The position numbers and the translations under genes are program-made. Of a stretch of DNA of 64,000 bases, positions 39,519 to 61,534 are shown piece after piece; position 1 is the first letter of the stretch; the number at the start of each line of letters is the position of its first letter. The notes beneath the pieces are model-generated. The model had not been told where the DNA came from and made no database searches. It was given only the letters and a program-made list of their open reading frames with translations. This DNA comes from Raillietiella orientalis (taxonomy: Eukaryota). The DNA lies in the NCBI GenBank assembly GCA_036172245.1, contig JAYWIR010000060.1, positions 558,001 to 622,000 of the forward strand, given 5' to 3'.

Positions 39519-39635
39519 CGTACAGTGCAGACGTGTTTCCGCGTCTATCCGCGCCAACGATCGGGCAACTTTGTGCCTGCGTTTTTGCTCGAACTTGTGT
39601 GTTCCTGTGCAATCTGCCAAGTAGCATAGTGCAAC

Positions 39636-40916
39636 ATGCCCAGTACACAGGATAGTGTGGAGGAGCAAGCCACTGGATGCACTTCAGCTGCACTTGAAGT
39701 GGCCGCATCCTCCGTAATGGTTTCCTCGCCCCCGGTGCGGAGTTACGCCGCCGTTACCTCCCGAAGACCAGGACCCTGCGATGCGGAGTTCCAGGCATAT
39801 GTGTCATCAGGATACATGCCTGCACTCCGTTATAAGGTCAGTGGGCCACTTAACGGGAGAATCGGTCGTGAGCTCAATGATGAGCTCGTCCGGATAGGCG
39901 TTCGCGAGGAGGAACTCCTTGCCATAATGCCTGCTGGCGGGATGGAATATACGAAGATTCGGTGCAAGAACGCAGCACTTGTGCAGCGCCTTCTCCGTAC
40001 GCCGTTGACCATCAATGGCAAGGAAGTCCTACCTACCGCGATGGACGACTCTTTTGTCGTTCAATTGTGCGACATCGAACCGGAAATCTCCGACCACGAT
40101 GTCGTAAGTGTGCTGGCGAAGTTCGCCACCGTGCACGCTCTGTGGAGGAGGCCAAATCCTCTTAAGGATTTCCCCTCTGTCCACATTGGACAAGCCTCCG
40201 CGCGGATCACCGTCGCGAACAGGCGTGTTGTGCCTGAGCAGCTGCAGGTGAACGGCACGGTCGTTCACCTGTGGTTCATAAGCCAGACTCGCGCGTGCGA
40301 GCAGTGCGGCAAGGAGGGCCATCGAATTAAAGAGTGCCCCTCTCCAAGATGCCGCTATTGCAAAGATTCGGGGCACGAAATCAAAAAGTGCCCGGTACTT
40401 GCAAGAAAAAGAGCCGCAGCGGAAATTCGTCGGGTTCAAGAGACCACTGCACGAAAAGCCGCAGCGGCAAATAAAAAACGTCGTCCGCAAAAACTCGAAA
40501 AAAACCACGAGCGATCTGCGGATAAAAAGAAAGCATCCCCGCCCGCAACGCCCCGAAAGGGGAAAGTCACAGCGGGGAAACCAATTAAAAAGGGGCGCGA
40601 GGGTTTGACGCGTGCCGTGCCTTCCCTCTCTGCCGAACTCGCAGGCACCTTTCCGAGCCTGGAACCAGGAAATCTCCGTAACACCCTGGAGGGAAAGGTA
40701 GGAAAACAGGAAGATCGCAACAGTGCAAAGACATCTTGCGCCGTTCCGTTGTCCCTTCGGAGTTCCGGACAGCCCCACTGCAGCGCAGGCCCCACTGCAA
40801 AGGCTACGAAAGCCGTAAAAAGCAGCGTCGCGACGAGCAAAAGCACGCTGCATGCAGTCGCCCCATCGCCGACTCGGCAGGTTTCCCCAAGTCCCACAAG
40901 GGGTGGGGTAAGTTCA
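39636..40916 (+). pseudogene. E10 ORF1, N-terminal part (resumes at 46507-47179)
   Basis: Knuckles CEQCGKEGHRIKEC and CRYCKDSGHEIKKC; reads ..SPTRGGVSS|PTRQERRDL in frame once E11 is removed. Confidence 0.88.
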
Positions 40917-41015
40917 TTTTTCTATAAAAATACAAAATTTACATTCGCACTCTCATTCACTCAAGACAAACATTTTGTAGTTGGGGGTCCTTGGGTTGCA
41001 CTAGAGTTCTGCTTT

Positions 41016-44000
41016 TCAGGGGGGAATTCCAGCTGGATGGTCCCGGGCGTCGTCCTGGATCCTCTTCAGGATGAATTGGTACGTCCAGGCGTGGATCTTC
41101 CCGCAGTTCCTGATGCCGATTTCCCTCTTCAGGAGCCCTTGTAGGATCTCCATCGGTGGTGCGACTCTCCTGGCTTTCCTCATTTTCCACCACCGCACAA
41201 GTATGGCGGTGATGAAGAGGGCTATGGTCTTCCTCACCATGGGATTGTAACAGGGAACATTACCATCCCAATGAAACATCCCGGCGAGGATCTCCATAAT
41301 GGACTTGTTGGTAAGTCCTATGATCCTTTTCAGGATCAGCCAGTCATGCAGCAGTGTGGGACACGTCAAGACGTGAAGTCTCGTGTCGTCGTCTCCACAT
41401 GCTGCGCAGTCTCGGTCTTCCCGTCTTCCTGTAAAGTGCTGCAATCGGGACCCACTCTGGATTCCTCCGTGATAAAACATCAGGAGGTCATCCTGGGTGC
41501 CCGGCGGAAGGTCACTCCTCCAGAGCGTCGTGCCGATCGCTAACAGGTTGAACCGTTCACTCCCGTAGCGTTCGGTGGCTTCCTGGAGGGCACAGGTGTC
41601 ACGGTCGTTTTCTTGGATAAGCCTTCGGAGGTTTGTTCTGGTTACCCTCGACCATGCGAAGTCGTTGTGGTTGAACCACACTTCGCGGGTCCTGTGGGTA
41701 AACCTTCCTAACATCATCTCTGTATACCGAAGTATACGTGTTTGATGTAGGTAGCCTCCTCGCCTCCACTCCTGGATTTGCTGTAGGGTAACTCTGGACC
41801 GCTGGTAGATCCAGCTTCTCGTGTCCGGTGGGACAGGAAGCAACCAAGGGATCACCAGGTTGGACTCGTCCTGCCAGAGTTCCCTGCTTCGCGGCACGAT
41901 CTTGATTTGGTGCTTCCGCACCAGCCGTTGCTTCCTCCTCCAGGTCGGGTCGATTCTTATCCATTCCCCTACTTTGCCTAGCAGCGCAGTCATCAGGCCT
42001 TTCGAGTTGTTAAGCAACAACGCGTAGGCCCTGTGCGCCGCATACGGCCAGTCATCCCAGTAAGTGGCAATGTCCAGGATGTGTCGCGTATCCATGATTC
42101 CCATGGAATGTGCAAGCGACTTCATCCCGGAACCGCCTTCTTCCCTGGGACGACACAGTGGTTTCAGTCTTACCCTTGGGCGATAGTGGCCCCAGAGTGT
42201 TTTTCTTTGCAGCTTGTCGAACTCCCTAGTAGTGTCCTTGTTCATCCTCGCGAAGGCCGCCCCGAAGAGCACTTTCGGAAGGAGTACTCCGTTCCATATG
42301 TTGGCCTTTCGCTTCATCCCCAGGTCCGTTCGGGTGTACTTGGCTGCTTCCTTGGCCGTTTTCCCCAGGATTTCCTTCCACAGCAGCTTCGACGCAGAGC
42401 CGTCGCCGATGTAGACTCCCAGGTACATGGCCGTGTCCACCGTACGGAATCCACTATCCGTTAGAGTGGATAGATCCAGTATTCCGACGGGCAAAAGCTG
42501 GCTCTTCTGGGAATTGATTTTTAAGCCCAAGCCCTGTTCCATCAGGTCCACCACATCCAGAAACGCACGCTGATTTTTCTCTCCCTTGATGAAGAAGAGT
42601 AGATCATTGGCGTATGCCAGATGGGTAAGACGCTGGCTATCGATGGTAATCCCGCTTAGTCGTCCGCTCTTCTCGATAAAGGACGACAACGCCTCCATAT
42701 AGATGACGAACAGCATCGGACTTAGCGAGTCGCCCTGTCGGACTCCTCGTTCCATCCTGATTGCTGCCGTCTCCTGGCCGTTGATCTTGATCCGGCAGTA
42801 CTGGTTCTGGAGTACCGCCCTCACGAAGTTGCTGAAGTGTTCCGGAAGCCCTAGCTTCTCCAGAACCTTCAGCAGCATCCCGTGGTCGATGGAGTCAAAG
42901 GCCTTCTCCATGTCAGTGAACACCAGCACCAGGTTCTCGCCGACGTATCGACTGAGTCCAACAGTGGCCTGGGCACACTTGACATTGTCCGACATGTGTC
43001 GACCTGGGACTGCACATGTCTGGACCGGAGAGATCAGCCTCGACATGACCTTGCCTAAGCGGTTGGACCAGATCTTCGCCAACCACTTGGCATCGGAGTT
43101 TAGGATCGAGATTGGCCTCCATTGGGCGATCTGGATAGAGTCGCCTCCTTTCGGCAGCAATCTCATCCGACTCTCGTAGAAGGACTGAGGTAGTCTGCCT
43201 TCTTCCCGGATGCAGAGGGTCAACTGGTGGAACAAGCGCAGGTAGGCGTGCAGGTACCGCTGATAGTGCGTGATGGGTACACTGTCAGGGCCCGCTGCCA
43301 CGTCCTTGCGAAGTTGCCCAAACGCAGTTCTCACCTCTTCTTCGGAGAACTCCTCCTCCAGTCTGTTCCCCTGGAGGTCGTCGGTCCTCTTCTCGAGATA
43401 GCTCAAGAAGGCCTGTTGACAACAGCGACACAGCTGTTGTCGCCTGAAGTGTTTCGTGTAATGCCTGTGAAAGGCATCCACGATGTCCTCAGACGACTGT
43501 CGCTTTTGGCCGTCGTACTGGATGCAGAAGATATCTGTTTCCAGATTTCTCTTCTCCAGCACGCCGACTTCCCCTTTTATGTTATTGAGGACGTACCGAC
43601 TCTCGTACTGATCAAAGTACTTTGAGAGGGAGCGATCTTGGATGTTCAGCTCCCGGTACGCCTCTTGCCTCAAGCGCCTATCCCCGAACTGCATGTTCGC
43701 AAACAGGTGTATCCTGTGTTTCAGGCTGTCCCAGTCGGCGCCTCTTCGGATTGTTGTTGCCCTCAGAATCGCCTCCAGGACAGCCTGATGTCCGGGATGC
43801 GTTTCGAAGCAGGCGGGCATGCTGATGAGCGCTGCCCTGGTGCCTTGCCTCCGCCGAGGATTCTCCGTTCTTAGGGAAAACCGCACCAGGGGGTGATCGG
43901 ACACCGTAGTCATAGTGTCGCGAAACCCCTGGATGCGGTTCCCAAGTTCGGTGCTGTGCAGGACGTGATCGATTGGCTTGTGGCTTGCTGTTCGCCCGAC

Positions 44001-44639
44001 CAGTCCGAACTCCTCGGATAGCCGTCGATACGCCGTCCTTCCTCTGGCGTCTTCCGAATGAATGATCTCATCCAAGATGTTGAGATCGCCAGCAACAATC
44101 ACGACGTCCTTAGGGGCGACCTTTTGCCGGAGTGTTGCATGCAGCGCCTCCGCACAACGATGTTTTAGCCTGTGCGGCCCGTACACGTTCACCAGGATAA
44201 GGTGAACAGTCGTGGACCAGGCCAGTCGCACGCCGATGATTCGTCCGGGTTGGGGACAGAACACTTCCAGAATAGTGGGGGCTAAGTGGTTCTTTATTAG
44301 CACCGCCACACCCTTCGTGTTCCGTTCTCCTTCGTTGACGAACATCTGCCCGTTGAATCGCCGTTCCATTCGCTGGCTTATCTCGAGAGCCATCCTGTGG
44401 GACTCCTGCAGGCACACGATGTCTTGTTGTGCGATGGTCCGCACAATCCTTCTTCTTTTTCCCTGGTCGACCACACCGTTTACGTTCCAGGAGGCGATGT
44501 TAATCCTCCTGGCGGTCGATAGGGAAGAGGCCAGAAAAGGGGAAGACCTATTTTTTGGCCTTCCTGAGCTTCTTCTGTCTGAGAGAGCGTGCTCTTCCAG
44601 ACAATGAAGAAGCAGAGGGCTTCTCGCTGCCGGCGTCAC
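41016..44639 (-). CDS. E11 ORF2: APE endonuclease + RT + C-terminal zinc finger (1207 aa open frame; YAND instead of YADD)
   Basis: IASWNVNG, CLQE, NVYGP, AGDLN, IDH, SDH; GPDS, WRPISILNSD, DMEKAFD, GVRQGDSLSP, YAND, YLGV; CAACGDDDTRLHVLTCP. Confidence 0.95.
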   Translation of the reverse strand: MTPAARSPLLLHCLEEHALSDRRSSGRPKNRSSPFLASSLSTARRINIASWNVNGVVDQGKRRRIVRTIAQQDIVCLQESHRMALEISQRMERRFNGQMFVNEGERNTKGVAVLIKNHLAPTILEVFCPQPGRIIGVRLAWSTTVHLILVNVYGPHRLKHRCAEALHATLRQKVAPKDVVIVAGDLNILDEIIHSEDARGRTAYRRLSEEFGLVGRTASHKPIDHVLHSTELGNRIQGFRDTMTTVSDHPLVRFSLRTENPRRRQGTRAALISMPACFETHPGHQAVLEAILRATTIRRGADWDSLKHRIHLFANMQFGDRRLRQEAYRELNIQDRSLSKYFDQYESRYVLNNIKGEVGVLEKRNLETDIFCIQYDGQKRQSSEDIVDAFHRHYTKHFRRQQLCRCCQQAFLSYLEKRTDDLQGNRLEEEFSEEEVRTAFGQLRKDVAAGPDSVPITHYQRYLHAYLRLFHQLTLCIREEGRLPQSFYESRMRLLPKGGDSIQIAQWRPISILNSDAKWLAKIWSNRLGKVMSRLISPVQTCAVPGRHMSDNVKCAQATVGLSRYVGENLVLVFTDMEKAFDSIDHGMLLKVLEKLGLPEHFSNFVRAVLQNQYCRIKINGQETAAIRMERGVRQGDSLSPMLFVIYMEALSSFIEKSGRLSGITIDSQRLTHLAYANDLLFFIKGEKNQRAFLDVVDLMEQGLGLKINSQKSQLLPVGILDLSTLTDSGFRTVDTAMYLGVYIGDGSASKLLWKEILGKTAKEAAKYTRTDLGMKRKANIWNGVLLPKVLFGAAFARMNKDTTREFDKLQRKTLWGHYRPRVRLKPLCRPREEGGSGMKSLAHSMGIMDTRHILDIATYWDDWPYAAHRAYALLLNNSKGLMTALLGKVGEWIRIDPTWRRKQRLVRKHQIKIVPRSRELWQDESNLVIPWLLPVPPDTRSWIYQRSRVTLQQIQEWRRGGYLHQTRILRYTEMMLGRFTHRTREVWFNHNDFAWSRVTRTNLRRLIQENDRDTCALQEATERYGSERFNLLAIGTTLWRSDLPPGTQDDLLMFYHGGIQSGSRLQHFTGRREDRDCAACGDDDTRLHVLTCPTLLHDWLILKRIIGLTNKSIMEILAGMFHWDGNVPCYNPMVRKTIALFITAILVRWWKMRKARRVAPPMEILQGLLKREIGIRNCGKIHAWTYQFILKRIQDDARDHPAGIPP

Positions 44640-46314
44640 TCTCCGTACCTGTGAGGTCGGTAATTTCCGCCTCCTCCGTAGAGTGTTCCGCCTGCGCGAT
44701 CAATTTTCGAGATAGCGCCTCTATCTCGACCTTGGCGCAGAAGTTCGCCTTCACGTCGAGAAGCTGTTCCACTAACTTCTCGCGTTCAGCGACCTCCACC
44801 ACCTGGTTGATGTTCTCTTGTGCAGTGCAGATCTTCTGCAAGATTTTCTCTTGCTGAGGACCGCTCTGCACCTCCATGATCTCCTCCGCCAGTGTTGCCA
44901 ACTCCTCCGTAGTCTGCGGAGCCTCCTGCGACACTTTAGTGGCTTCCTGTCTCTCTTCCTTCGCGCCTTCCTGCGCTACCTCCATCTTCTCGCCTTCCTG
45001 CTCTGCTGCTTCCAGGATTTGAGGAGTTCCTTGCTCCTTGACGAGCATCCTCCTCTTTCCCTTCTTTCCCACTTCTATGAAGCCGTCCGCCGACACCGGG
45101 ACAGCTTCTTTCACTTTTTTCTGCCTTCCTGCCTTCTGAGGCTGTTCGGCCTCCTTGATGTTTCTCTCTCTCACGGGAGAGAGACCTCGAATCCTTCTGC
45201 AGTTTTTAAACTCCGGACAGCTCCATTTCGCATGTCCGTGTTTCTTGCAGAAGGAGCACACCTCCGGATGCGGGCAGTTTCGGACTTGATGTCCTACTTT
45301 GCCGCAGCGGAAACAACGACTCGTTGGGCAAGAGCCGGCCCTGTGACCGAACTGCTTGCACCCGGTGCAGAATACCGGTTGTTGCCGGTAACGCACATTC
45401 ACTCCCTGGGATTGTTCGTCAATAACGGCCAATCCAGGGATCACCGCTCCCTCCCTCAACTTCATCTTGGCGATCATGTCGCCAGAAAATATGTTTCCAG
45501 AGAAGTTCTGGAAATCAAGGTCCAGAACTTCCCCAAACTGCTCCAAGTAATTCCACACCGCTAGTTGCGGTGTGCGGATGGAGATGCCGTTTAAAAAGAC
45601 GGTTGTGTATGGCATCTCGCCAATACCACAAACCATCCGTCCTTGTATATTGATCCCCTTCTGGATCAATCGCTCTCTAATTTTTTCACAGTCTGTAAAG
45701 ACTGTGAACCCGTTGTTTGATGGAATGATCGCCTGAATGCGATCAAAGTCTATGTCCGTCTTGTCGAGGGACAAATAGACCTCCCTGATGTTATTAAATC
45801 TTATTAGCTCCGTCTTGAAGATAATGGGCTTCACGTTGGGGCCTATTTCGACTATTGGTCGGTCCACTTTTAGTACTTTTCCGCTAAGCGGCTTACCGAA
45901 TTTCCTAGGTGGGTGGACACTCGCCTGTCCAGCCGCCACCGACGCATAAGAAAAAGGCTGCGACGCCGCAGCCGAACAAGATGGCGTCGCTCCCTGCACC
46001 GCGTGGACGCCCGCGGGTCCCGCCTGGGACGCCACCGCCGCGGGCGCAAACCTCGACGTTGCCGCCGTTACCGCCGCGGGCGGCACCTTCGGCATCGCCG
46101 CCGCAGGCGCGACCTTCCCCGCCGCGGGCACGATCCTCGGCGTCGCCGCCGCGGGCACGACCTCCGCCGTCGTCGCCGCGGGCACGACCCTTGGCATCGC
46201 CGCCGCCGGCGCAGCAAAGCCCGCCGCGGGCGCGATCCTCGGCATGCCTGCCACCGCCTCGCCGTTGCCGCACGTTACCTCCATGGCTTCCATGGGGGAC
46301 GACGGTCTCTCCAC
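44548..46314 (-). CDS. E11 ORF1: gag-like nucleic-acid-binding protein (588 aa)
   Basis: RRM-like TVFLNGI..YLEQFGEV and three CCHC knuckles (CTGCKQFGHRAGSC, CFRCGKVGHQVRNC, CSFCKKHGHAKWSC); Ala/Pro-rich N-terminal repeats. Confidence 0.95.
   Translation of the reverse strand: MERPSSPMEAMEVTCGNGEAVAGMPRIAPAAGFAAPAAAMPRVVPAATTAEVVPAAATPRIVPAAGKVAPAAAMPKVPPAAVTAATSRFAPAAVASQAGPAGVHAVQGATPSCSAAASQPFSYASVAAGQASVHPPRKFGKPLSGKVLKVDRPIVEIGPNVKPIIFKTELIRFNNIREVYLSLDKTDIDFDRIQAIIPSNNGFTVFTDCEKIRERLIQKGINIQGRMVCGIGEMPYTTVFLNGISIRTPQLAVWNYLEQFGEVLDLDFQNFSGNIFSGDMIAKMKLREGAVIPGLAVIDEQSQGVNVRYRQQPVFCTGCKQFGHRAGSCPTSRCFRCGKVGHQVRNCPHPEVCSFCKKHGHAKWSCPEFKNCRRIRGLSPVRERNIKEAEQPQKAGRQKKVKEAVPVSADGFIEVGKKGKRRMLVKEQGTPQILEAAEQEGEKMEVAQEGAKEERQEATKVSQEAPQTTEELATLAEEIMEVQSGPQQEKILQKICTAQENINQVVEVAEREKLVEQLLDVKANFCAKVEIEALSRKLIAQAEHSTEEAEITDLTGTESDAGSEKPSASSLSGRARSLRQKKLRKAKK
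46010..46250 (-). repeat. Coding minisatellite in E11 ORF1 (..PAA.. units)
   Basis: Repeated CCCGCGGCG-based units encoding PRIAPAAG, PRVVPAAT, PRIVPAAG, PKVPPAAV, SRFAPAAV. Confidence 0.8.
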
Positions 46315-47178
46315 TCATCTTCTAGGTGCCTGCATCCTGGCAGCTGGTCTTGCTGCACGGGACCACTGCAGGTCTTTTGCCGCGATCTCCTCGCCGCTTC
46401 TTTTTTTTGTTTCTTCTGGAAAACTTCCCCTCTCCGGGCACACACGAGCACAATGAACTGATTAAGTTGTCAAGCGCAGAATACTTTGAGCCGCGGAGCA
46501 AGTTCACCGACTCGGCAGGAGAGGAGGGATCTGCCGACTGTCAAGAAGGTGACTGCGTTGCCGCCTTTTAAAGGCGTAGGGAAAGCAACGCCCCCAAGAG
46601 AACGCAGCGAAAATCCCGGAGGTTTCCGCAACTACTGCCGCGGAAGCCTCCAAAAATCGCGAAGGCGTATAAAAGGTTGTGAAGAGGAGGAAAGAAAAAT
46701 CCCCAAGAAAAGCTCCGCAACCTCCATCCCTGAGCTCTTCCAAAGGAAAAAGCAGTCGCGGGAATACGAAAACACGCGCGGCTTGTGCCTCTTCCAAGGA
46801 AAAAGCCAGCGCCTTTAACGCGTGCAAGTCCGCTTCTGTGACCGCCGAGAAGAATATTCCGGTGCGATCGGACGGATACAAACGCACGTCGATCGTGCGA
46901 GCATCAGACTTCGCAAAGGAGTCCGATAGCGCCGCTGAACGACGCGTTTCTCGCGCGGAAGCGAGCGCCCGCAGGGCGGAAGCCCTGAGGCGTGACACAC
47001 TCGCCGCGGAACGGCGAGTGCTCTCCCCGGAACCCACAGGTTCTGCACCCGGGGAGGAGCACCCAATTACGTGCAGCACAGTTGAGGCCGGTGCCGACCA
47101 CGCCCTCCAGCCCGTCGTGCTGCTTACTGCCCGCTCGCCGGGTGAGGCGAACACCACGGCCTCGCTTTCCCAGCCGTG

Positions 47179-50100
47179 ATGAGGGCAATCGCGTCTTCTT
47201 GTCGTGTTGCCGTAACGTCTTGGAACGTCAACGGGCTACAACACGAGGAGAAGAGGCGACTAGTGGCTGACGCTCTGCGCGCCTTCGACTTGACGCTCCT
47301 GCGGGAGATTCACAGCATCTCCGGAGAGCAGGCTGCCGAAATCGAACGGCGCGCGGGCGGAACGCTACTTTATAGGTGCGGCGTTGCACGTACGTGCGGC
47401 GTCGCTTTCCTCGTGCGAGGAACTTTGGCGGGAGCGGTGCGCAGCGTTCGTTTCGACACGGAAGGCCGAGTGGGACAGCTTGTACTCAAGTGGTAACCAA
47501 CGTGTACCCGCCGAGCGGTGCTGGACGATGGGCCGAAAGGATTGAGTTCTTCGGTACCCTTCAAAGCCAGTGGCTCACTCGATCTCACCCTACTGTGGCC
47601 CATCTCATTGCGGGGGACTTTAACGTCCACCTGCTTTCCGAGAATAGATCCCACAAAAGGGAAAAGTTGCTAGCGGAAGAAATGTGCGCGTCCGTGCACG
47701 CGTGCAACTTGTTCGCTAGCGACCCTGTTATGGCAGCAACGCCGGACCACGTATACCTTGATGAACACTTGCTCTGTCGAGTGGGTCGGAGAGGTCCCGT
47801 GCCGTCCGTGCTTTCAGACCATAACAGGCTCGAGTTCGAGTTGCTCCCGCCAGGCAAGGGGCCTCCAAACTGTTTTTGGAGGATGCCGGCAGACTGGCTA
47901 AGCCACCCGGAGGCGGCTGAGCATCTTCGCCAGTACCTCCTCGGCTTTGCCATAAATGAGCTCGACGACTGGGACGATCTGAAAAGATCGGTCCGGGAGT
48001 TCTGCTGCCGGTTTCCCTTGCACCAGCTTCCGCGCGGCTTCGGAGAGGGCGTAGCCAACAGCAGAGATTTTCTGCAGGCCCGCTCCTTTTCCAGGCGCGC
48101 GGACGTTGGTCGATTATCCCAGTACAAGGCCAAGGCCGAGCGCCAGGTCTGGCAGTCAGGGGCGACAGTTCTGCTCGACGACCAGGACCGGGAATGCTCG
48201 GCTCCAGCCGACGTGCGACGGATAGTCAGGCGCTATTACTCTTCTCTGTATGCAGAGGCACCGACGGAACGCAGCCTCTCCCGGCTGCTTCTGCCGATTG
48301 ATGCACCTGTTGTAGACGAGGAGGAACGCGCGCGTCTTGATGAGCCCTTCACGGCCGAGGAAATTTCCTCGGCTACTCGGGGCTCAAGAGACGAAAAGCG
48401 CCAGGCGAAGATGGGCTTCCCGCGGAATTCTTTCAGTGTTTTGCGGCGGAGCTCATCCCCCTGGTGCTCCAACTCTCGTCGCTGATGCGAGACTCGGGCG
48501 ATGTCCCCGCCTCGTTTCGCTCAGCGAAGGTGCGTCTACTGCCGAAAGGCGGAGATTTGCGCCAACTGAACAACTGGCGTCCGATCACATTAGTGAATTC
48601 GGACGTCAAGTTGTTCTCGAAACTTTGGGTGGCGCGGATGGGTAGGATCGCGGAATCCTTGGTAAGTCCGGAGCAGATGTACGCTGTTCCTGGGCGGACC
48701 ATGGACGGGAATCTCTTGTTCATCCGCACATGGCTGCAATTGCAGCATCGTGTGGCGGTGGATCGTCGTGCGTAAGAGACGCCTTCCATCTCTCACCGAC
48801 GGAGGCGCGGGACGCAAAGGGAGACACCGGGAGCCTTGGCGGTTGCAGTCGATCTGCACAAAGCTTTCGATTGCGTGAACCAAAAGCTTCTTCTTGAGCT
48901 TTTGGAACGTCTGGGTCTTCCGGCATCCCTGTTGGCGTACTTGCGCTAATGCTGGCGCCACGCGATTACATCCATTGTTTTCAGTGGCTGTCGCGTGTAC
49001 GGCGTGCCGGTACGACGAGGAATTAGGCAGGGTGACAGCTTAAGCCCGCTGCTCTTCAGCATCTATTTTGAATTGGTGCTGGAGGCTTACAGGTTGACGC
49101 TAGCCAACCTGCCGAGCTCCTGTCCAGGTACGCCGGCCGTGGCAGCCTATGCCGACGACCTGCTTCTTCTGTTGCCCATGTCCACCCCGGCGACATCGCT
49201 TGAAGACTTCTTTGAGTTGATTCGTCGCGGTGCGGGCGTGAGCGTTAACAGGAGTAAGTGTATGGTTGTTCCGGTGGGTGCGACGTGGGAGGAGCAGTCC
49301 GACTGGATCGACCTGGGGATCCCCACGGGCAGGTACCTCAGGTACCTTGGCGTGCCGTTGGGCGACTTCTGCATCTCAGAAGCGTGGTCGGACTGCCTTC
49401 GGAAGGCAGAGCGTGCACTTATCCCGTTTTCAGGAGGCGAGTTCGTCTTGCCGGAACAGGCCTGCATCTGGAACACCTTCGTTGCCCCCCTCCTCCGCCC
49501 CCTGTTTTTTGTTGGTCAACCCCCTCAGGAAGTCAAAGTCTGGGCGCAGCGTTTTCTACGCAAAGCGTTGTGGGGCGCTGAAAGATCCCGTGTTAGACTT
49601 AAAGACTTGGTGGCGCCGCGTCAGGATGCAGGCTTGGGCATCCTCGACTTAAACAGCATCGAACTGCAGGTGCAGTTTCGCATGCTGCGGCTCTGTGCCA
49701 AGCTGTGGTGTACGCCGTGGTGCTTACCCGCACGCCTTATACTGAGGCGCTGCACGGGAAGCGAGGGACTGCTTTCGTTGCTACCCCACTTTCGGCACAC
49801 CAGAATAGGGTTTGGCTTCCCGCTGAGGCAGCTGTCCTCACTGCTGGAAGCCCCAAGCTGGATCTCCTGCCGCCCCATGAACATTAATGCATGGCGGCAG
49901 GAATCTTTTTCATCGTGGGCAGCTTCCGAAGGAACGCGCCCGGAAGATCTTCGACGCCTGCGACTTCTCCTCAGTCATCAAATGGACGAAGTCATGCAGG
50001 ACAAGAAGTTGTCGGATCGTCTGGCCGCCACACCACTCGCCGCAGCGCTGTCTGCCCTCAGGGCAAGCAACCACGGTTGCCTACCGGCGGAATGGAAGTT

Positions 50101-50728
50101 CTCCTGCAAAATAGCGGAAGTCAGTAAGCTCCTCGGCAGCTGGACGACAAAGGATCTGGTGCAAGTCGCCACTCCTCGGAATTGGGCGAAGGGTCTGCTT
50201 CGGTGGAGCGAACATTTCAGTGTGCCCCCCGTAGAGATAGTGGTTCCCCCCGTTTGTTTGGACAGCTCCGTGTTCCCCCTTAAGTGGAAACAAGATGTGC
50301 TGCTCTTTTTACATTGTGCATTTCACTGTAATAGGCAGCGAAGCATCGTTTCCGGGGGAGCTGCCTTGCCAAACTGTTTAAGGTGCGGAGAGATCGAGTC
50401 TTTTCCGCACCTTTTGCTGGACTGCGGTGACCTCCGGGAACTGTGGCGAAGGCTCACTTCGGCCATCATGCCACAAGGAGGCACTGCCATTGATGTGCTG
50501 CGGCGCTTCTTCAGCAGAAATGGACTTTCGGTTAGCGCGATTGATGCAACCATGTGTTGCGTTCGCGCCATCGTGAAGGCCCGCTACGCCCTGGAGTTGT
50601 CATCGCAGCGAAGGGAGGCTCACCTGCTTGCAGCTCAATTCATGGAGAAGGCTTCAAGGTGGTCTCATCTTCGTGACAAGGTGAATCAGGACATCACCGG
50701 CATACATCGCCGGTTTACACACCTTTGA
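47179..50728 (+). pseudogene. E10 ORF2 (APE + RT + zinc finger), frameshifted
   Basis: VTSWNVNG, AGDFN, SDH, NWRPITL, QGDSLSP, YADDL and CLRCGEIESFPHLLLDC spread over ORFs 47176, 47376, 48464 and 48995. Confidence 0.93.
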
Positions 50729-51082
50729 GAACGGCGTAATCCGGTGACCCCTGCGACCTCTCGCCCACCCATACCCCGTCCCCGTTCGCTCGGTAAAATT
50801 TCCGGTGCCCATGCTTTTATCCGCGTGTCTTCCAGAGCGATCCCAAAGACCCTTATCCCGTCCTCCTTATTCATTGTTTTTATTTTATTTTGGTTTCGTT
50901 GTGTTTCCCACCCCCCCCACACCGTTCAAGAAACTGTTACTCTGGCCTGCGTGCCAGCAATATTCTCTTCATTCTTGTTCAGTTGTCGGTTAGGAGTTTG
51001 GTTCCCAACTGGTTTATTTTGTATAATTGCTTTTTTTCGTTATGTTATATGGAATAAACGCCCCGGCGTCACCGGGTGAGAA

Positions 51083-52977
51083 ATCTCCCGGGCTTGATCT
51101 GCGGAGATCACGTGGATCTCCTGCAGCAGCACCAGGTCGAAGGATGCCAGGGTGGCGGCCACTTCACGCCTCTTGCCGTCGTCGCTTAGCCCGTTCACGT
51201 CACAACAGGCGATCAGAAGACGACGGCGAGAGGCGATTCCCGGCATTATGGCTGGGAAAGTGGCGTCGCGGCACCTGCCGCGGGGCAGGTGTAGGACAGG
51301 TCCATCGGTACGAGGACATAGGCCTCTTCAGGCGCCTGGGGTACCTGTTCGGCCTCCATCCTCACCATCCCCTCCGTGTCCGAGCGTGGAATTCTCTCGG
51401 GCGACGGGTCCCGGGAGTTTCCCACGCTCATGGCACCCTCGCTACCGGAAGCCATCTCTTCCCCTTCGTCGGGGGAGACGATCTTCCGGGCATTGTGGAC
51501 TTTCGTCCTTCCTTTTTGCGGGGTGCCGCGGAGATGGATGCTGTGTTTCCGGCCTTCACCTCGGGGTCGGAAGTGGCCGACTCCTGAGGCGAAGCCGGAC
51601 GCCTGACGGCCTTCTTGCCAGCCTTGGGGGCAACCGGCTGCAACGAGGCAGCCAGCTCCTCCGCGGCGCGCTCAAAGGCGACGTCATCGAGCGTGGGCTC
51701 GATGACGCACGCCACCGCCTCGCTCCACTCCTTGTTGACTTTGTCAACGGAGGGTTGAGCAGGGGCAGCAGGGAGTTCTTTAGCGCCGCATTCGTCGATG
51801 GCGGGGGTCGTCCGCTTGCAACGACACGCTTGGCTTTTACGTTGTATCGCGGCGCAGAGCGGATTCGCTCCGTTTCGCCACGTTCTTTCCCTTCTTATGG
51901 GAGTTTTTCTTGGGGTCGACCTTCTGCCATTCTGGCTCTTGACCCTCGCCCTCGACCTTTCCGGCGTCTTTCGCCGAAGTCTCGGGGCTGGCCTTCGCCT
52001 TGGTGGCGGAGGTGACCTCCGTAGCAGCAGCACGAGCTGCCAGCTTCTTTCTCTTTTTTGCCGCGCGCTTTCTCGCGTTTTTCGCGGACACGACGCGGAC
52101 TGTGTTTTGTGGGCACACCAGACGGGTGTGCCCCGCTTGTTTGCATTGCTGGCACTGCACGCTCGGACACGTTATTTTGCGGTGACCAAAGCTGCTGCAG
52201 CAGCCGCAAAACTTGGGTTTCCCCACGTACCACACGTCAACGGATTCACCGTTGACGGTGAGTTTGTGGGGAAACTCACATCCCTCGCGAACCGTCACTC
52301 GAGCTGCTCCCAGGCCGCCAAGCACCCCGTCGTAATCGACAAAAGGAGTAGGCTTTCCTTACAGCGCGTGGACAGTTGCGAATTTTTCCAATTCGTTCCG
52401 GACGGCCTCCTTCGTCATCCGGAACGTGATACCGGTGAGGTGAATGATCTCCGACCGATCTTCAGTAATAGGAAGAAGCCTCCGGCTGCCCATAATTACG
52501 GGAGTTCGCAGAAGTCTTTGCGCAAGAGTTGCCTCCTTGCACATAACTTCCACAAATTGACCCCCGCTTCTGACGGACATAGCCAGAAGCTCCTCTTTCT
52601 GTACGCCAAGAACGCGCATCGCCTGTGAGAAGGCGCGCGCGTTCTCGGGAGAATATAGACCGCCAACCTTATATAGAAGGGGTGGGTTATACCCCTCCTC
52701 CAGGTAAGCGCGCATTTCCACCATAGCCGCTGGCGTAGGTGCCGCAGCCACGGCGTTCCAAGCCCTAGGTAGTGCCGGGGGCGCATCCGTGCTGGCGGGA
52801 GCCTCCACTGATGCGGGAGCCCCCACCTCCATCTCCTCTGGGGGCAATAAGGTCATCGCCCCCGGATCCTCACCGGTGGTGGTATCAGGCATTGCTACCT
52901 AATCCTCCACCCACACCACGCACAAGCACCAACGGAAATGAAACTCAAGAGCAACGAAAAGACACGTCCGCTCGACG
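51083..52977 (-). mobile_element. E9 (5' piece): 5' UTR, disrupted ORF1 (52892-51246) and ORF2 start
   Basis: MPDTTTGEDPG.. near-identical to E12 ORF1, with a stop at 52359; TAATG overlap at 51246; ORF2 cut at ISADQAREI. Confidence 0.93.
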
Positions 52978-53205
52978 CTCCGGAATCTCCATTGAAACCC
53001 GGGTGCGCCGGGACGTTTATTCTAACGAATAAACTTATACAATCTGTGACTGGACCAGTAGTCCAGCCACGCCCTGGAAAGATATAGCCTGCCGGGCTAC
53101 CAGTGCGCAGACCGGCGCGGTCGACCTCGGCAGCAGAGGGGAGGGGGAACGAAACAAAAAGAAAACAAAAAAATAAACAAAAATCAGGGAGGGAGCGGGA
53201 AAGGA

Positions 53206-56200
53206 TCACAGTCTGCTGGGAGGGCCCGTCATCCTCTGGAGGATGCCGGCAAGCTGTTTCTGCTTGTGTGGTTCCAGATGGGGCCATCGCGTCGCCATCC
53301 TGAGGAAACGGGCGGCATACACGTTGGCATCCCTGTCGCTGGATCCTCCCGTCGCTTTGCTCCATGCCACGACGATCCCGCGTAGGCAGCACAGGGCTGC
53401 AAGCGAGGCCACTGGAGGCAGGGCGTCACGGACGAAAAGGGGGCGCAAGGTGTCTCTGGGGTTGCCTTCGGGGATCCCCAGGGCTGCGGCAAAGCGTTTC
53501 CACAAGGGACGGAGGGCAACCCAATCCACTAACAGGTGGGGGAGGTATTCCCTCTCCCCGCACCTGACACAATTAGGGTTGACAGCCCCCCGCGTGCAGT
53601 GGTGTCGGCGGGCGTTGCAAGGAAGCCCCAAATTCAACACCAGCAGTGCCGACTGTTCCCACTTCATGGGGAGGGTGCGCGAGTCCATGAGCACCGGGGG
53701 CCACTCGAGATGTTCCTCTGGAAGATCCAGTAGCTCTTGCCAGCGCGACAGTCCATTTGGGGTGGTCCTCGGGGTAGCATCGTTGGTGAGCTGATCCGTT
53801 CTCCAATCCCCGATCTTCTTTGCCCTGCTGGCGATCTTGACAGTAACCTCCCATTGTGCCGTGACGTCGCTGCCCAGATGTCATCGTAGGGTAGGCAGTA
53901 CCGCAGCAAGGGAGTTTTTTTGTGCCAACGCTCTCCTTCGGGGATACTCGATTTCTCGGAGCGTGCGGTGGGCATGCGGCCCAAACAGAGCTGTTCGCTC
54001 GTGTTGCGGGCTCTGCTCCTGAATCATCGCCCACGTACGGACGGTTTCCTGCAACCAGGCAGGACCGTTCGCGAAGCGTACGAGAATCCGCGCCGAGTTG
54101 TTCTTCACGAGCTTGGCCGCCCTCCGAAGATGAAGTCAGCAGTGGCAGATGGGGCTTCGGAGTGCAAAGTAGGACGACAGTCCCGCATTGCCATTGGCCC
54201 GCTCGAAGAGAAGATGTGCAGGGAGGCACCAAGAGTGCACCAATTTTCTGCCATAAAGGCAACAACTCGGAACTGGAGCTGTAGCTCCAGCCGCTCCAAC
54301 GTCAGGAGGCCCAGACCACTATCCCGAAGAGGAGCGCACAAGTCCGAAAGACGGACTCGGGGCCGCCCTCTGTCCCAATGGGCCATCCTCAGGAGGTCCT
54401 TCGTCCTCTTCTTTGACTCCGCTAAGGGGGAACAAACAAAAAGCAAGGGGCGAAGGAGGGAGGCCGCAAACGCGTTTCACGCCGCGGCCCGTTTCTGCAG
54501 GTAGCACCTGCCGTCCTGGAACGGGCCGATCGCCGCCTGAGACTTCTGAAGGCAGCCCGACCACGCTTCCGCAGGGGAGTAGTCCCCCAACGGCACACCC
54601 AGTTACTTGAAGTACCTCACCGTGGGGATCCCCAAACGGACCCAATCCTGCTGCCCTGCCCACGCCGCTCCGACTGGCATTACGGACGACTTCGCCCTGT
54701 TCACCGTCAGTCCTGTTCCCCGACTCAGCAGGTCGAAGAACTCCTCGACCGCCGCAGCCGGGGTGGACATAGGCAGCAGCAGCAGAAGGTCGTCCGCGTA
54801 CGCCGAAACCGCAGGCGTACCGGGACAGTCGCACGGCAGGTGCGCCAGAGTCTCCCTGTACGCTCTCAGCACCAATTCGAAATAGGCGCTGGAGAGCAAG
54901 GGGCTGAGGCTGTCTCCCTGCCGTATGCCGCGTCGCACCGGTACGCCGTACACGGTGGATCCACTAAAAAAAACATTAATAAGCGCGTCGCGCCAGCTGG
55001 AGCGCAGGTAGGCCAGCATAGAGGCCGGGAAGCCCAAGCGTTCCAGAAGCTCCAAAAGGAGATTCTGGTCGACGCAATCGAATGCTTCATGCAAATCGAC
55101 TGCGACCGCGAGGGCTACTCTCCCCTCCCGAGCATCCCGTCCCCCACCGACGGACGCACCGGAATTACGGTTGCCTATTATGCTCCTTCCTTGTTGGAGC
55201 TCTAACCATGTGGAAGCGTGGAACAGGTTCGCCTCCATACTTCGCCCGGGAACAGCATATGTCTGTTCCGAGCTGATGAAGATGTTGGCGACCCGTCCCA
55301 GGCGCTCTGCCCACAGCTTGGCTAGCAACTTGGCGTCCGCATTCACTGTTGTGATGAGACGCCATTTGTTCATGCTCCTTAGGTCTCCTCCCTTCGGGAG
55401 GAGCCGCACCTTTGCTGAACGAAACGAGGTGGGAACGTCACCTGTTTCACGGATCAGCAAGGTGAGCTGATGTACCAGGGGAGTAAGCTCAGCCGCGAAA
55501 GTTTGGTAAAACTCCGCGGGCAGGCCGTCCTCCCCTGGAGCCTTCCGCCTCTTGAGCTTTCCGCTGGCCGAGAGGATCTCGTCCATCGTGAAAGGCTCGT
55601 CGAGGCTTCTTTTCTCCTCCTCCCCGATCGCTGGAGCACCTTCCGGAAGCAGAAGTCGTGAGACGTCTCGCTCCGGAGGCGCCCTGGCGTACAGGGAGGA
55701 GTAAAATTTTCTTACTATCCCGCGTTTCTGAGCGGGAACCGAGTGCTCCCGGCCCTGGTCGTCCAGCAAGCTGGCCGATCCGGATTGCCAGGCTTGCCTC
55801 TCGGCTCCCGCTCGGTACTCTGCTAACCTGCGCATGTCGGGGGTTCTCGCGTAACGTCGGGCCTGAAGATAGCACCTTTCGTTACGCGGCCCCTCCCCAA
55901 AACCCGCAGGTAGGCGATGCAGGGGGAACTGATCGCAGAACTCCTGGACCGACCGCTTGAAGCGGTCCCAGTCCTGAAGTGTCTGCATCCTGAAGCTTCG
56001 AATAAACGCGCGGAGGTGCTCCGCCGCGTCGGGAAACTTCAGCCAGTCCCCTGGCAGACGCCACGCTGACGAGGGGGGGCCCTTGTCGCGCAAACGCACT
56101 TCGAACATGATCCGACCATGGTCCGACAGCTCGGATGGTACCTTGCCGCGCCTGCCCACCCGAGAGCATAGGTGCTGATCAAGGTTACATGATCGATGCT

Positions 56201-56779
56201 GCTTACCATGGCCGTGTCCCCGGCCAACAAGTTGCACGTCATTTCATTTCTGCGCACAACTCGTTGACGCGGTCGTTCGGTGTAACCGGCGCGCCCCTGA
56301 AAGCGGAGGCGCAGGTTGAAATCTTGCGGTCAACTGCGTGCCATTGCATCGGTCAGCCAATCGCGTCTCCGGACAAGGTAGAACTCCCTTCTTGCCTTCG
56401 CCCTCAACGCGGCGTTTCCGCTAGGAGCGTATAGGTTGGTGACGACCAGGTCGATAGAGTCGGACCAGCTGAGAGTCAGCTGACCGACGCGACCTCAGTC
56501 ATCGCACCGAACGTCCTTTATTGCGGTCTCTATGGCTGGCCTAAGCAGGAAGGCGACACCGCTTGATTTCGCGGTGCCGCAACGCCACAACAGCCGTCCA
56601 CCGGAGATCCGTTCGATATCCCGGACTTCATCTGCGGAGATCACGTGGATCCCCTGCAGCAGCACCAGGTAGAAGGATGCCAGAGTGGCGGCCACGTCAC
56701 GCATCTTGCCGTCGTCGCTTAGCCCGTTCACGTTCCAACAGGCGATCAGAAGACGACGGCGAGAGGCGATTCCCGGCAT
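53206..56779 (-). pseudogene. E12 ORF2 (APE + RT + zinc finger), disrupted
   Basis: ORFs 56495..56779, 54603..56237 (QGDSLSP, YADD), 54105..54446 and 53206..53694 (CVRCGEREYLPHLL). Confidence 0.92.
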
Positions 56780-58437
56780 TATGGCTGGGAAAGTGGCGTC
56801 GCGGCACCTGCCGCGGGGCAGGTGTAGGAAAGGTCCATCGGTACGAGGACCATCGGAACGAGGACGGAGGCCTCTTCAGGCGCCTGGGGTACCTGTTCGG
56901 CCTCCATCCTCACCATCCCCTCCGTGTCCGAGCGTGGAATTCTCTCGGGCGACGGGTCCCGGGAGTTTCTCACGCTCATGGCACCCTCGCTACCGGAAGC
57001 CATCTCTTCCCCTTCGTCGGGGGAGACGATCTTCCGGGGCATTGTGGACTTTCGTCCTGCCTTTTTGCGGGGTGCCGCGGAGATGGATGCTGTTTTTCCG
57101 GCCTTCACCTCGGGGTCGGAAGTGGCCGACTCCTGAGGGGAAGCCGGACGCCTGACGGCCTTCTTGCCAGCCTTGGGGGCAACCGGCTGCAGCGAGGCAG
57201 CCAGCTCCTCCGCGGCGCGCTCGAAGGCGACGTCATCGAGCGTGGGCTCGATGACGGACGCCGCCGCCTCGCTCCCCTCCTTGTTGACTTTGTCAACGGA
57301 GGGCTGAGCAGGGGCAGCAGCGAGTTCTTTAGCGCCGCATCCGTCGATGGCGGGAATCCGCTCTACAACGACGCAGCAGCTTTTAATTTTTTCGCGGCGC
57401 AGAGCGGTTTCGCTCCGTTTCGCCACGTTCTTTCCCTTCTTATGGGAGTTTTTCTTGGGGTCGACCTTGTGCCACCCTGGCTCTTGAACCTCGCCCTCGA
57501 CCTTTTCGGCGTTTTTCGCCGAAGTCTCGGGGCTGGCCTTCGCCTTGGTGACGGAGGTGACTCCCTTAGCAGCAGCACGAGCTGCCAGCTTCTTCCTTTT
57601 TTTAGCCGCGCGCTTTCTCGCGTTTTTCGCGGACACGACGCGGACTGTGTTTTGTGGGCACACCAGACGGGTGTGCCCCGCTTGTTTGCATTGCTGGCAC
57701 TGCACGCTCGGACACCTCATTTTAAGGTGACCAAAGCTGCTGCAGCAGCCGCAAAACTTGGGTTTCCCCACGTACCACACGTCAACGGATTCACCGTTGA
57801 CGGTGAGTTTGTGGGGAATCTCACATCCCTCGCGAACCGTCACTCGCGCTGCACCCAGGCCGCCAAGCAACCCGTCGTAATCGACAAAAGGAGTAGGCTT
57901 GCCCCACAGCGCGTGGACAGTTGCGAATTTTCCAAATTCGTTCCGGACGGCCTCCTTCGTCATCCGGAACGTGATACCGGTCAGGTGAATGTTCACCGAC
58001 CGGTCTTCTGTTATTGGGAGAAGCCTCCGGCTGCCCATACTTACGGGGGTTCGCCGAAGTCTCTGCGCAAGAGTTGCCTCCTTGCAGATAACTTCCACAA
58101 ATTGACCCCCGCTTCTGACGGACATAGCCAGAAGCTCCTCTTTTTGTACACCGAGAGCGCGCATCGCCTGCGAAAAGGCGCGCGCGTTCTCGGGAGAATA
58201 TAAACCGCCTACCTTATATAGAAGGGGTGGGTTATACCCCTCCTCCAGGTAAGCGCGCATTTCCGCCATAGCCGCTGGCGTAGGTGCCGCAGCCACGGCG
58301 TTCCAAGCCCTGGGTAGGGCCGGGGGCGCATCCGTGCTGGCGGGAGCCTCCACTGATGCGGGAGCCCCCACCTCCATCTCCTCCGGGGGCAATGAGGTCA
58401 TCACTCCCGGATCCTCACCGGTGGTGGTATCAGGCAT
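56779..58437 (-). CDS. E12 ORF1: intact gag-like protein (552 aa)
   Basis: Open frame with RRM-like region and knuckles CGCCSSFGHLKMRC, CQQCKQAGHTRLVC; its TAA overlaps the ORF2 ATG. Confidence 0.95.
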   Translation of the reverse strand: MPDTTTGEDPGVMTSLPPEEMEVGAPASVEAPASTDAPPALPRAWNAVAAAPTPAAMAEMRAYLEEGYNPPLLYKVGGLYSPENARAFSQAMRALGVQKEELLAMSVRSGGQFVEVICKEATLAQRLRRTPVSMGSRRLLPITEDRSVNIHLTGITFRMTKEAVRNEFGKFATVHALWGKPTPFVDYDGLLGGLGAARVTVREGCEIPHKLTVNGESVDVWYVGKPKFCGCCSSFGHLKMRCPSVQCQQCKQAGHTRLVCPQNTVRVVSAKNARKRAAKKRKKLAARAAAKGVTSVTKAKASPETSAKNAEKVEGEVQEPGWHKVDPKKNSHKKGKNVAKRSETALRREKIKSCCVVVERIPAIDGCGAKELAAAPAQPSVDKVNKEGSEAAASVIEPTLDDVAFERAAEELAASLQPVAPKAGKKAVRRPASPQESATSDPEVKAGKTASISAAPRKKAGRKSTMPRKIVSPDEGEEMASGSEGAMSVRNSRDPSPERIPRSDTEGMVRMEAEQVPQAPEEASVLVPMVLVPMDLSYTCPAAGAATPLSQP

Positions 58438-58522
58438 TGCTGCCTAATCCTCCACCCACACCACGCACAAGCACCAACGGAAATGGAACTCAGGAGCAAC
58501 GAAAAGACACGTTCGCTCGACG

Positions 58523-61500
58523 CTCCGGAATCTCCAAGACTGGGACCTTTTTAAGGAATCGGTCTGGGAGTTCTGCGAGCAGTTCCCCCTGGACCGCCTG
58601 CCCGCCGGATTCGGCGAGGGTCCTCGCAACCATCGGGCCTATTTACAGGCCCGTAGGTACGAGCGAACCTCTAATGTCCGTCGCCTCGCCGAGTACCGAG
58701 CCGGGGCCGAACTCCAAGCCTGGCAATCCGGGTCGGCCAGCTTGCTGGCCGACCAGGGCCGGGAATGTTCGTCCCCGGCGTCGGTACGGCATCTCGTGCG
58801 GAGTTTTTATTCCTCCCTTTACGCCAGGGAGCCCCCGGATCAAAACGCCTCTAAGCGCTTGCTTCCGGATGGCGCCCCGGCAATAGGGGTGGAGGAGATG
58901 GAAAGCCTCGACGAGCCTTTCACCACCGGCGAAATTCTCGTCGGTATCAAAAGGCTGAAGAGGCGTAAAGCTCCAGGGGAAGACGGCTTGCCCGCGGAGT
59001 TGTTTCAGAGCTTCGCGGAAGAGCTGGCACCCCTGCTGCTTAAGTTGATCAGGCTGATCTGAGAGTAAGGCGATGTTCTCGCCTCGTTTCGTTCAGCGAG
59101 AGTGAGGCTCCTTCCGAGAGGGGGAGACCTCAGGGATTTAAAGAACTGGCGTCCGATCACGATCCTGAATACGGACGTTAAGTTGATAGCAGGGCTATGC
59201 ACTTCGCCTCTGGGGCAGGTGGCAGAACCCGTAATTAGCCCGGAGCAGACTTATGCTGTTCCCGGGCGAAGTATGGATGCCAACCTATTGTTCGCAAGCA
59301 CATGGGTGCACCTGCAGAGAAGAGAAAAGAAAGGGATAGGGAAAGTCGGCAACCCCACATTGGGGCAACCAGCCGGGCTGGGAAAGGAACCCCGGGCGGG
59401 GAAGGGGGCCCTAGCGCTCGCAGTCGACCTCCACAAGGCGTTCGACTGTGTAGACCAGGAACTCCTCTTGGAGCTCCTGGGTCGCTTGGGCTTCCCACCG
59501 TCCCTGATTTCCTACCTGTGCTCTTGCTGGCGGAAAGCGATGATTACCGTCTCTTTCAGCAGTCAAAAGGTGTATGGCGTGCCGGTGCGGCGGGGCATAA
59601 GGCAGGGAGATAGCCTCAGCCCGTTGCTCTTCAGCACCTACTTTGAGTTGGTGCTAAGAGCGTACAGGGTGACTTTGGCCCCATTGCCGAGCTCGTGCCC
59701 CGGCACGCCCGCCGTAGCAGCGTACGCCGAGGATCTGCTTTTGTTGCCAATGTCAACCCCGGCGAAGGCGGTCGGAGACTTCTTCGATCTGCTCAGCCGC
59801 GGAACCGGACTGCAGTTTAACAGGGCGAAGTCGTCGGTTGTGCCAATAGGTGCGGAGTGGGCAGAACAGCAGGACTGGGTCCGTCCGGGGATCCCCACGG
59901 CGAGTTGCTTCAAGTACCTTGGTGTGCCGTTGGGGGACTACTCCCCTGCGGAAGCGTGGTCCAGCTGCCTCCAAAAAGTCGAGACGGCAATCGGCCCGTT
60001 CCTGGAAGGCAAGTATCACCTGCCGGAACGGGCCGCGGTTTGGAACGCCTTCGCGGCCCCCATCCTCCGCCCCTTGCTTTTTGTTTGCCCCCCCACCGTG
60101 GAATCCAAGAAGAGGACGAAGGACCTCCTCCGTATCGCCCTTTGGGGCAAGGGGAGGCCCCGAGTCTCACTGAAGGACTTGTGCGCTCCGCGTCGGGACG
60201 ACGGTCTTGGCCTCCTGACGCTGGAGCGCGTGGAGAAGCAGCTGCGGTGGCGAACCCTCGCCATCGCAGCGAAGTTGTGGAGCACCCCTTGGTGCACTCC
60301 GGCCCGCCTTCTGGCCAGCCGTGTGTCACGGTGCGATGGACTCGCGTCTTTTCTTCTGAGCCGTGGCCGGAAGATGCGAAGATGCGGCCTACTGCTCGGG
60401 CGCATGGCAACATTGGCCAAGGAGAACAGCTGGATGGTTTGCTGCCCCGCCAACTCCCCCGCCTGGCTGCAGGAGAATATTGGAACGTGGGCAGTAGTTA
60501 ACCGGAAAAGCCACGAGACGTGGAATCGTCTCCGATGCAGCCCCTACGCCCGCTGCACGCTGCGGAATCTCCTGGAGAGTCCAGCAAGATGCACGTGGGC
60601 AGAGACGACCTGCCTAGCTACGGCGCTGCCTTTCCTAAGGAGGGCACTTCACAGCACCCGGACGCCAAGGTGGCAAGTCTCCTGTTGCATCGAGGGACGC
60701 GAGAAGTTGGTCAGCGGCTGGACAACAGGAGAACTGGCCGACGCCACGACCCTGAGCGTCCAGCCGCGAGGATTATAAAGAAGGGGCGAGCTGCTCGCCA
60801 TCCCCATGGATGAGCTGAAGTGGCCCCCGATGATGAAAGAATTTAGGATCCTGCCCCTAAAGTGGCAAGAGTCGGCGTTGCTTTTGTTGCACTGGGGTCT
60901 ACCCTGCAACGCGCGCCGCTTCCACTGGACGAGGGGAGCTGTGGATCCTGCGTGTGCCAGGTGCGGGGAGCGGGAGTCGCTTCCCCACCTTATTGTGGAT
61001 TGTGCTGCCCTCCGACTCCTTTGGGAACGGTTCGGGACGACCCTCGGGCTCCCTACAGGCAGCACCCCCAGAGTCGTTCTTCAACCCCTCTTCGTGAAGG
61101 ACGCACTGCAACCAGCCGCAGCCATCGCAGCCTTGTGCTGCGTCCGTGGCATCGTGGCGGCATGGAGCGACGCCAACAACGAAGGAGTGGGTCCAAAGGT
61201 GAGGGATGTCATCCCATACGCCCAACGCTTCATGCGGAGAGCTGCCGGATGGCCGCAACTGTGGTATATCCGGACGAACCTCGAGGGCTTCCTTCAACGG
61301 ATGGGCCCTCCTCACAGCGTTTTGTGATCCCTTCTCTGCCCTCCAACTTCTTTTTGTCTGTTAATTTTTTATTTTTCTTTTTGTTTTATCCCCATCCCCC
61401 TTCGCTGCTGAGGAACGCTACGCTGGGCTGCGTCCCGCCGTCCTGGCAGGTACAGTGTATATGGCCGTGAGCAGGGCCTTGTACCGCGGATCTAGAGTTT

Positions 61501-61534
61501 TACCAATAGACGCCCCGGGCGTACCCGGGTGTAA
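58523..61534 (+). mobile_element. E13: Tx1-like ORF2 from linker to end + 3' UTR (host of E9/E12)
   Basis: Starts LRNLQDWDLFK; PGEDGLP, NWRPITILN, QGDSLSP, YAED, CARCGERESLPHL; ORF2 ends 61327; terminus AATAGACGCCCCGGGCGTACCCGGGTG. Confidence 0.93.

Follow-up and report, generated by a model that had tools for sequence, protein, structure and literature searches.

How do two long interspersed nuclear elements (LINEs) of one family come to lie head to tail with little more than a 14-nt sequence between them, and does that sequence belong to the element or to the DNA that it entered? The question arises in a 64,000-nt stretch of Raillietiella orientalis DNA, referred to below as the window (assembly GCA_036172245.1, 210 Mb in 491 contigs; contig JAYWIR010000060.1, here C60; C60:558001-622000), in which related L1-like LINEs are nested in one another from ~23.7 kb onward. 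We denote the families by letters: A comprises the two elements of the pair, E12 and E9; B is represented by E13, which adjoins E12; D by E11; G by E7; and E and L by the two halves of E8. We conclude with high confidence that A is a sequence-specific L1-group non-LTR (lacking long terminal repeats) retrotransposon targeting one site in the second open reading frame (ORF2) of its sibling family B, in the linker between the endonuclease (EN) and the reverse transcriptase (RT). It enters this site in antisense orientation, duplicates it, has arrived there in copies of independent origin and spares its own homologous site. The features involved are the following.

36538..39518, minus strand: 3' part of E9 (family A positions 1894-4879), stopping at a family-E insertion site
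51083..52975, minus strand: 5' part of E9 (family A positions 1-1905), the earlier insertion, interrupted by a family-D insertion
52978..52991, plus strand: 14-nt host target copy between the E12 3' end and the E9 5' end, with CG just before it (52976-52977)
52992..58520, minus strand: E12, a full-length family A LINE of 5,529 nt, the later insertion, flanked by both 14-mers
58521..61531, plus strand: E13, the 3' half of a family-B host (B position 2641 to the end)
58523..58536, plus strand: 14-nt host target copy at the E12 5' end, in frame with the host ORF2, with CG just before it (58521-58522); the first-strand nick would fall after 58536

E12 has an open ORF1 (554 amino acids) and an ORF2 (EN-RT) disrupted by stops and frameshifts, and it terminates at its 3' end in AATAAA, a small hairpin and TTTCAA, without poly(A). 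E13, whose ORF2 is ~73% identical to family A, has no 5' half in the window. A preliminary description had presented E12 and E9 as head-to-tail twins separated only by a copy of the target. The common family and the 14-mer at the junction stand, but E9 is split rather than whole, and its last ~650 nt are gone together with its 3' duplication.

Family A and its site in family B

The 14-mer, CTCCGGAATCTCCA, has exactly two occurrences in the window (52978-52991 and 58523-58536), one at each E12 junction, as first described. The 5' end of E9 adjoins the first, and E13 runs on from the second in frame as ..L-R-N-L-Q-D-W-D-L-F-K; the translations agree with the reading of L-R-N-L-Q in frame with host DWDLFK and with the paralogous motifs proposed for it, LQTLQDW in E8 and MQTLQDW in E9 and E12. 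Among 30 loci retrieved with the start of E13, 23 were uninterrupted B copies running through the motif in frame, identifying the 14-mer as host sequence, and seven were A 5' ends. The exact 16-mer made up of CG and the 14-mer had 173 genome matches. Contexts counted by eye in the first 100 listed comprised 54 empty B sites (one decayed), 19 junctions of a left B arm with an A 3' end, 21 of an A 5' end with a right B arm and six tandem junctions, with no further context among these 100. Site alleles private to a locus were repeated on both sides of single elements (C26, C68). The alternative that the 14-mer is the element's own end was rejected, as it is present in empty B copies and absent from the sole A copy at an unrelated site.

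The repeat common to both E12 junctions spans 16 nt when CG is counted (52976-52991 and 58521-58536). For a B allele starting with CC, all three empty sites read CC, whereas all seven A 5' junctions read CG or CA (CG in five; CA in two, an identical pair), and host bases are retained at the 3' junctions of CC-type alleles. The CG is therefore likely to derive from the element in most cases, and the cut spacing, hence the true duplication, is likely 14 nt; this allele evidence favors the length originally given over 16 nt.

We read every one of the 47 exact genome matches to the last 21 nt of A. A script labeled 36 as host-site, eight as tandem and three as other; inspected by eye, one of these three lay at the site, one ended only 3 bases from a contig end and one was off target, for a final census of 37 host-site, eight tandem, one off-target and one contig-end match. 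In this genome-wide survey of E9/E12-family junctions, 45 of the 46 informative 3' ends lay at the 14-mer site of B in antisense orientation. By the rule that more than 20% of flanks be of one sequence type (PMC4494074), taken together with a target duplication, A is a target-specific non-LTR element, with duplicates on both sides. No adenine had been added at any of the 46 informative ends, all of which stop at TTTCAA, and A does not carry the poly(A) or simple-repeat tail expected of the L1 group. At the opposite end of the element, 71 of 72 A 5' ends continued with the site sequence or with one of its alleles (ten of the 71 with a more divergent allele, whose host was deduced from one locus), and a reversed control pattern gave two chance matches. 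The sole off-target copy (C38) is 5'-truncated, has a 15-nt duplication of its own and is without the 14-mer.

The homologous site in A itself (MQTLQDW) shares with the B site the bases after the nick and differs in those before it. A 5' junctions occurred at 0/86 exact A-type sites and at 21/75 B sites (p=2e-8; one of the 86 matches, an unrelated chance match, was excluded from the test), and the 3'-end census contained no A 3' end within another A body. Family A thus spares its own homologous site.

Origin of the tandem copies

In Drosophila, new R1 copies enter the duplicate at the 5' end of a resident copy (PMC2718515). The A arrays show this polarity, E9 having been inserted first and E12 second. 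Across 12 arrays, the 5' member was unbroken in nine and the 3' member in two (discordant arrays 7:0, p=0.016). Eight tandem junctions were found per 37 host junctions, where 6.1 would be expected if one regenerated site were used like a fresh one. Repeated insertion into a regenerated target site, as initially proposed for this locus, is supported by the census, by the non-sister relation of paired copies described below and by the polarity of nested insertions.

It is improbable, in our estimate, that tandems arise in one step, by a jump from one RNA template to a second or from a dimer RNA made by read-through, or that targeting is directed not by the endonuclease but by read-through RNA that pairs with the nicked strand. 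Such schemes agree with the 3' junctions, invariant and without poly(A) in 46/46 cases, with the element-derived target-like bases at the 5' junction and with the flanking-sequence pairing proposed for R1 in PMC2718515. However, the load of nested insertions differs between the members of arrays with a single polarity, host alleles with 3-7 mismatches are used, including mismatches in the last bases before the nick, and the off-target copy has no target bases at its 3' end, still with CGC/GGAT at the nick (slash; n=1).

It is very unlikely that E12 and E9 originated by tandem duplication at this locus or by unequal crossing over at the short duplicates. Over the first 1,150 nt, the two differ by 6.1%, against a median of 6.0% for all pairs of 47 copies (0.061 versus 0.060), so the signature of a duplicated pair was not seen; E9 ranks only 34th of 46 among the relatives of E12, whose nearest relative lies on C103, 1.9% away. 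Over 4.9 kb, E12 is 93.5% identical to E9 and 95.8% identical to the C103 copy, and these identities and the distance ranking contradict duplication for this pair. The members were likewise not sisters in nine of ten measurable tandem pairs. The exception, on C26, is a pair within one clade and, like the recombinants found in repeat-rich islands (E8), speaks for local duplication.

Independent insertion into B also accounts for the relation between inserts and hosts, which we compared at 37 loci (one of 38 was dropped for a rearranged flank). Median divergence was 10.9% among hosts and 5.6% among A inserts (0.109 versus 0.056, n=37), and 25 of the 41 insert pairs less than 3% apart sat in hosts more than 8% apart. 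Amplification of one old A-in-B insertion as a composite by segmental duplication, the common junction being a single event, is hardly credible and was rejected for this incongruence, because hosts are twice as diverged as inserts, near-identical inserts occupy hosts 10-19% apart, several host alleles are used and insert and host share their nearest neighbor in only 7/37 loci, despite two pairs of loci that are identical duplicates and a weak correlation of A and host distances (Mantel 0.34, p=0.008).

Several observations weigh against targeted reinsertion or limit its reach. The Mantel correlation and the identical locus pairs imply that our counts overstate the number of independent events. 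Decayed copies escape the censuses, which rely on exact matches. Taken alone, the polarity of divergence does not reach significance, the 5' member being closer to the family majority in 8/10 pairs (p=0.11), and arrays were located via the 3' end of the 5' member, which may favor young 5' members. The eight tandems would also agree with both duplicates being used again (12.3 expected, p=0.14). Two 5' junctions (C101, C135) retain host CC. The C26 pair combines a single clade with outer flanks of unlike alleles, which means that arrays also form by local copying or recombination. Finally, the nick position, the RNA ends and the attribution of specificity to the endonuclease rather than to RNA pairing are deduced from sequence. 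The C26 array itself (C26:2849986-2866700) has left and right host arms from different B subfamilies and members that are close relatives, and is a recombinant array.

Enzyme, mechanism and the second junction

The translations place A in the L1 group with an apurinic/apyrimidinic endonuclease (APE): ORF1 has Cys/His knuckles, and ORF2 has an APE endonuclease, an RT and a C-terminal Cys motif (RVT_1, Exo_endo_phos). The best PDB matches by sequence and by fold were human L1 ORF2p/EN. Of 17 full-length A copies, most preserve the EN catalytic motifs and two have an open ORF2 frame of 1,173 amino acids. A predicted EN model (predicted local distance difference test, pLDDT, 84) came closest to human L1-EN (template-modeling score, TM, 0.71). 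The segment before IDH is ~17 residues shorter than in L1-EN and was modeled as a short helix; both this segment and the loop that follows NxYAP differ from family to family. By L1 numbering, the latter probably corresponds to the L1 region. The endonucleases of sibling families are 52-65% identical to that of A. Both variable regions have been tied to target choice (PMC1950540). A protein search gave 40 homologs, one a close match (73%) and the other L1-like proteins distant (<31% identity); no named Tx1 or Zepp sequence was among the 40, and the search gave no clade placement, such as the grouping with Tx1L, Keno and Kibi in RT phylogeny that marks the Tx1 clade.

By analogy with target-primed reverse transcription, the APE endonuclease would nick the coding strand of B at ..CTCCA/RGACTGG, reverse transcription would be primed at the exact RNA 3' end with no poly(A) copied, and the second strand would be cut 14-16 nt away. 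The RNA may begin with a few bases resembling the target that help to form the 5' junction, and a short leader of this kind would account for the exactness of full-length 5' ends. At the 5' end of the element, the duplicate retains the 14-mer together with the downstream host bases and so constitutes a complete new target, into which the next copy would insert. The sister family L would nick the same register in D and G hosts, with a ~6-nt duplication.

The L junction in the window, and the insertion that splits E9, involve three further features.

28021..30987, minus strand: E7, the 3' half of a family-G host severed at L-E-D-W; 6-nt duplicated target at 30982-30987
30988..36537, plus strand: E8, a chimera, family L for the first ~2.9 kb and family E for the remainder, the family-E part meeting E9 with its 3' end at A position 4879
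39519..51082, plus strand: E11 (family D), antisense in the endonuclease region of E9, with a ~12-nt duplication; D junctions at 51083 and 39518

The joint of E8 and E7 (~30987/30988) lies 6 nt from the nick register, beside the codons L-E-D-W-D-D-L. Identity of E8 to family E is 54-72% up to ~position 2,940 and then 96-99% (97-99%), and the idea of E8 as a plain single insertion in E7 was rejected in favor of a two-family chimera. The switch suggests that deletion or recombination fused two nests where the 5' half of E13 and the last 650 nt of E9 are missing. At 30 loci with family L 5' ends, 27 ends lay at L-x-D-W codons of D- or G-type hosts, two were tandem and one was elsewhere; 29/30 junctions were in the same register. 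Four of five exact L 3' ends (one a tandem junction) abutted matching host bases, with a duplication of ~6 nt. These data place the L nick one base before the D-W codons, in the register of A, and register and short duplication together explain why the E8 junction looks offset by ~10 nt. Since L uses this register in D and G hosts, we infer that the EN-RT linker is a hotspot common to these families, each of them reading it in its own way. The preliminary description had read the E8 5' end near the L.DWD motif of E7 as a second hotspot: the register is that of A and is used by L in other hosts, but E8 is a recombinant and shows only the L 5' junction. A separate copy (L152, C68:478233) is 100% identical to the first 1.7 kb of E8 but adjoins another host site, in sense orientation; it is either a very recent copy or the product of gene conversion.

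E11 is itself divided by a more distant L1-like element (~40882-46503, minus strand), which lies antisense within it with a ~13-nt duplication. This element has an open ORF1 (588 amino acids) and ORF2 (1,227 amino acids), the latter ~30% identical to ORF2 of the sibling families. On the 3' side of E13 (61532-64000), the remainder of a host ORF1 is followed by a second D copy (62088-64000, minus strand) in the same EN site as the D insertion at 51083. The left part of the window has inverted and direct repeats of 440-630 nt (10408-11039; 8242-8677 with 11550-11987; 3839-4305 with 13624-14090).

Sibling families and known systems

Using the 3'-end motif as search key in a 750-kb sample drawn around A and B, we found 131 element 3' ends forming 10 groups of at least two, in each of which one or two sites in the ORFs of sibling families predominate. 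All of these ends have AATAAA and a CCCGG..CCGGG hairpin, and, with few exceptions, a final AA. The hairpin folds, yet its stability does not exceed that of shuffles (z -0.6 to -1.4), so that only its recurrence counts. Insertion is antisense in most groups and in sense in two, B and one other family, and a rule of invariable antisense insertion was rejected. B inserts in ORF1 of A, as seen from both junctions on C136 and from single ones on C118 and C60; with A in ORF2 of B, this makes the targeting reciprocal. B also forms tandem copies. Five recurrent sites in A (positions 1156, 1346, 1905, 2626 and 4879; for example, window 51083 and 36538) are struck by five different sibling families.

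A more general scheme is conceivable, and we offer it tentatively: one LINE lineage of about ten families, hosted in the coding sequences of their siblings, each endonuclease reading fixed sites there, sparing their own homolog and attacking reciprocally, and with the homologous bond cut by two families, each in its own siblings. Endonuclease surface loops and the alleles of their targets might then coevolve in a hyperparasite arms race that builds islands, possibly centromeric. Matches across the genome are grouped in islands, and some contigs have several; many lie close to the end of a contig or on a small one, and the islands are possibly heterochromatic or centromeric. Some A 5' regions are identical across contigs (C11:4638801 and C13:2464602; C33:258831 and C209:23357), being segmental duplicates or assembly haplotigs. 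In 47 aligned A copies, CpG columns were no more diverged than others (0.034 versus 0.035), giving no sign of methylation-driven decay.

Among known systems, R1 arrays in Drosophila 28S ribosomal DNA (rDNA) resemble A in being APE-type and site-specific, with a 14-bp duplication, an invariant 3' junction, head-to-tail copies with a duplicate between them and the same entry polarity (PMC2718515). They differ in that the R1 clade targets 28S rDNA, whereas A targets coding sequence of a sibling LINE, ORF2 of family B; in the 5' junctions, variable in ancestral-type R1 and nearly invariant in full-length A; and in that the best structural relative of A is L1, in a comparison that did not include R1. 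The Tx1 clade, as described in PMC4494074, likewise contains L1-group LINEs with another mobile element as fixed target (Tx1L in Tx1D; Tx1-Mar and SINEU-3 in Mariner-N4; Tx1-8_Crp and Tx1-4_AMi in LTR elements; Tx1-9_AMi in Harbinger), and tandem SINEU-3 copies sandwich a duplicate. The Tx1-clade targets listed there are DNA transposons, LTR elements, RNA genes and microsatellites, whereas A targets a sibling LINE, and the passages considered describe no reciprocal targeting for the clade. Zepp and ZeppL of green algae are L1-type LINEs nested in GC-rich islands via existing elements, as A is, but their descriptions (PMC3446292, PMC8226300, bioRxiv 2025.03.28.645958) present Zepp as self-inserting and mostly 5'-truncated. 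Clusters of the Zepp/ZeppL type lie singly per chromosome, at the centromere. A is often full length, belongs to a large set of families whose sites are separate and does not insert into its own family, none of the 86 homologous sites of its own carrying an A 5' junction.

Reinsertion into a regenerated site is already known from R1 and SINEU-3; the new part is the fixed sites of sibling LINEs in each other's genes. Our literature search, in a collection without most subscription papers and Repbase reports, did not turn up any account of sibling LINE families whose sites in each other's ORFs are fixed, reciprocal and self-sparing, which is weak evidence of novelty given this coverage. These families form a natural panel of closely related APE endonucleases that differ in their long target sites and whose insertion products are known, making the gain or switch of sequence specificity by a LINE endonuclease directly testable, and new site-specific insertion tools may follow. 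Target-specific LINEs can thus use sibling LINEs as a safe harbor, with reciprocal attack and self-sparing.
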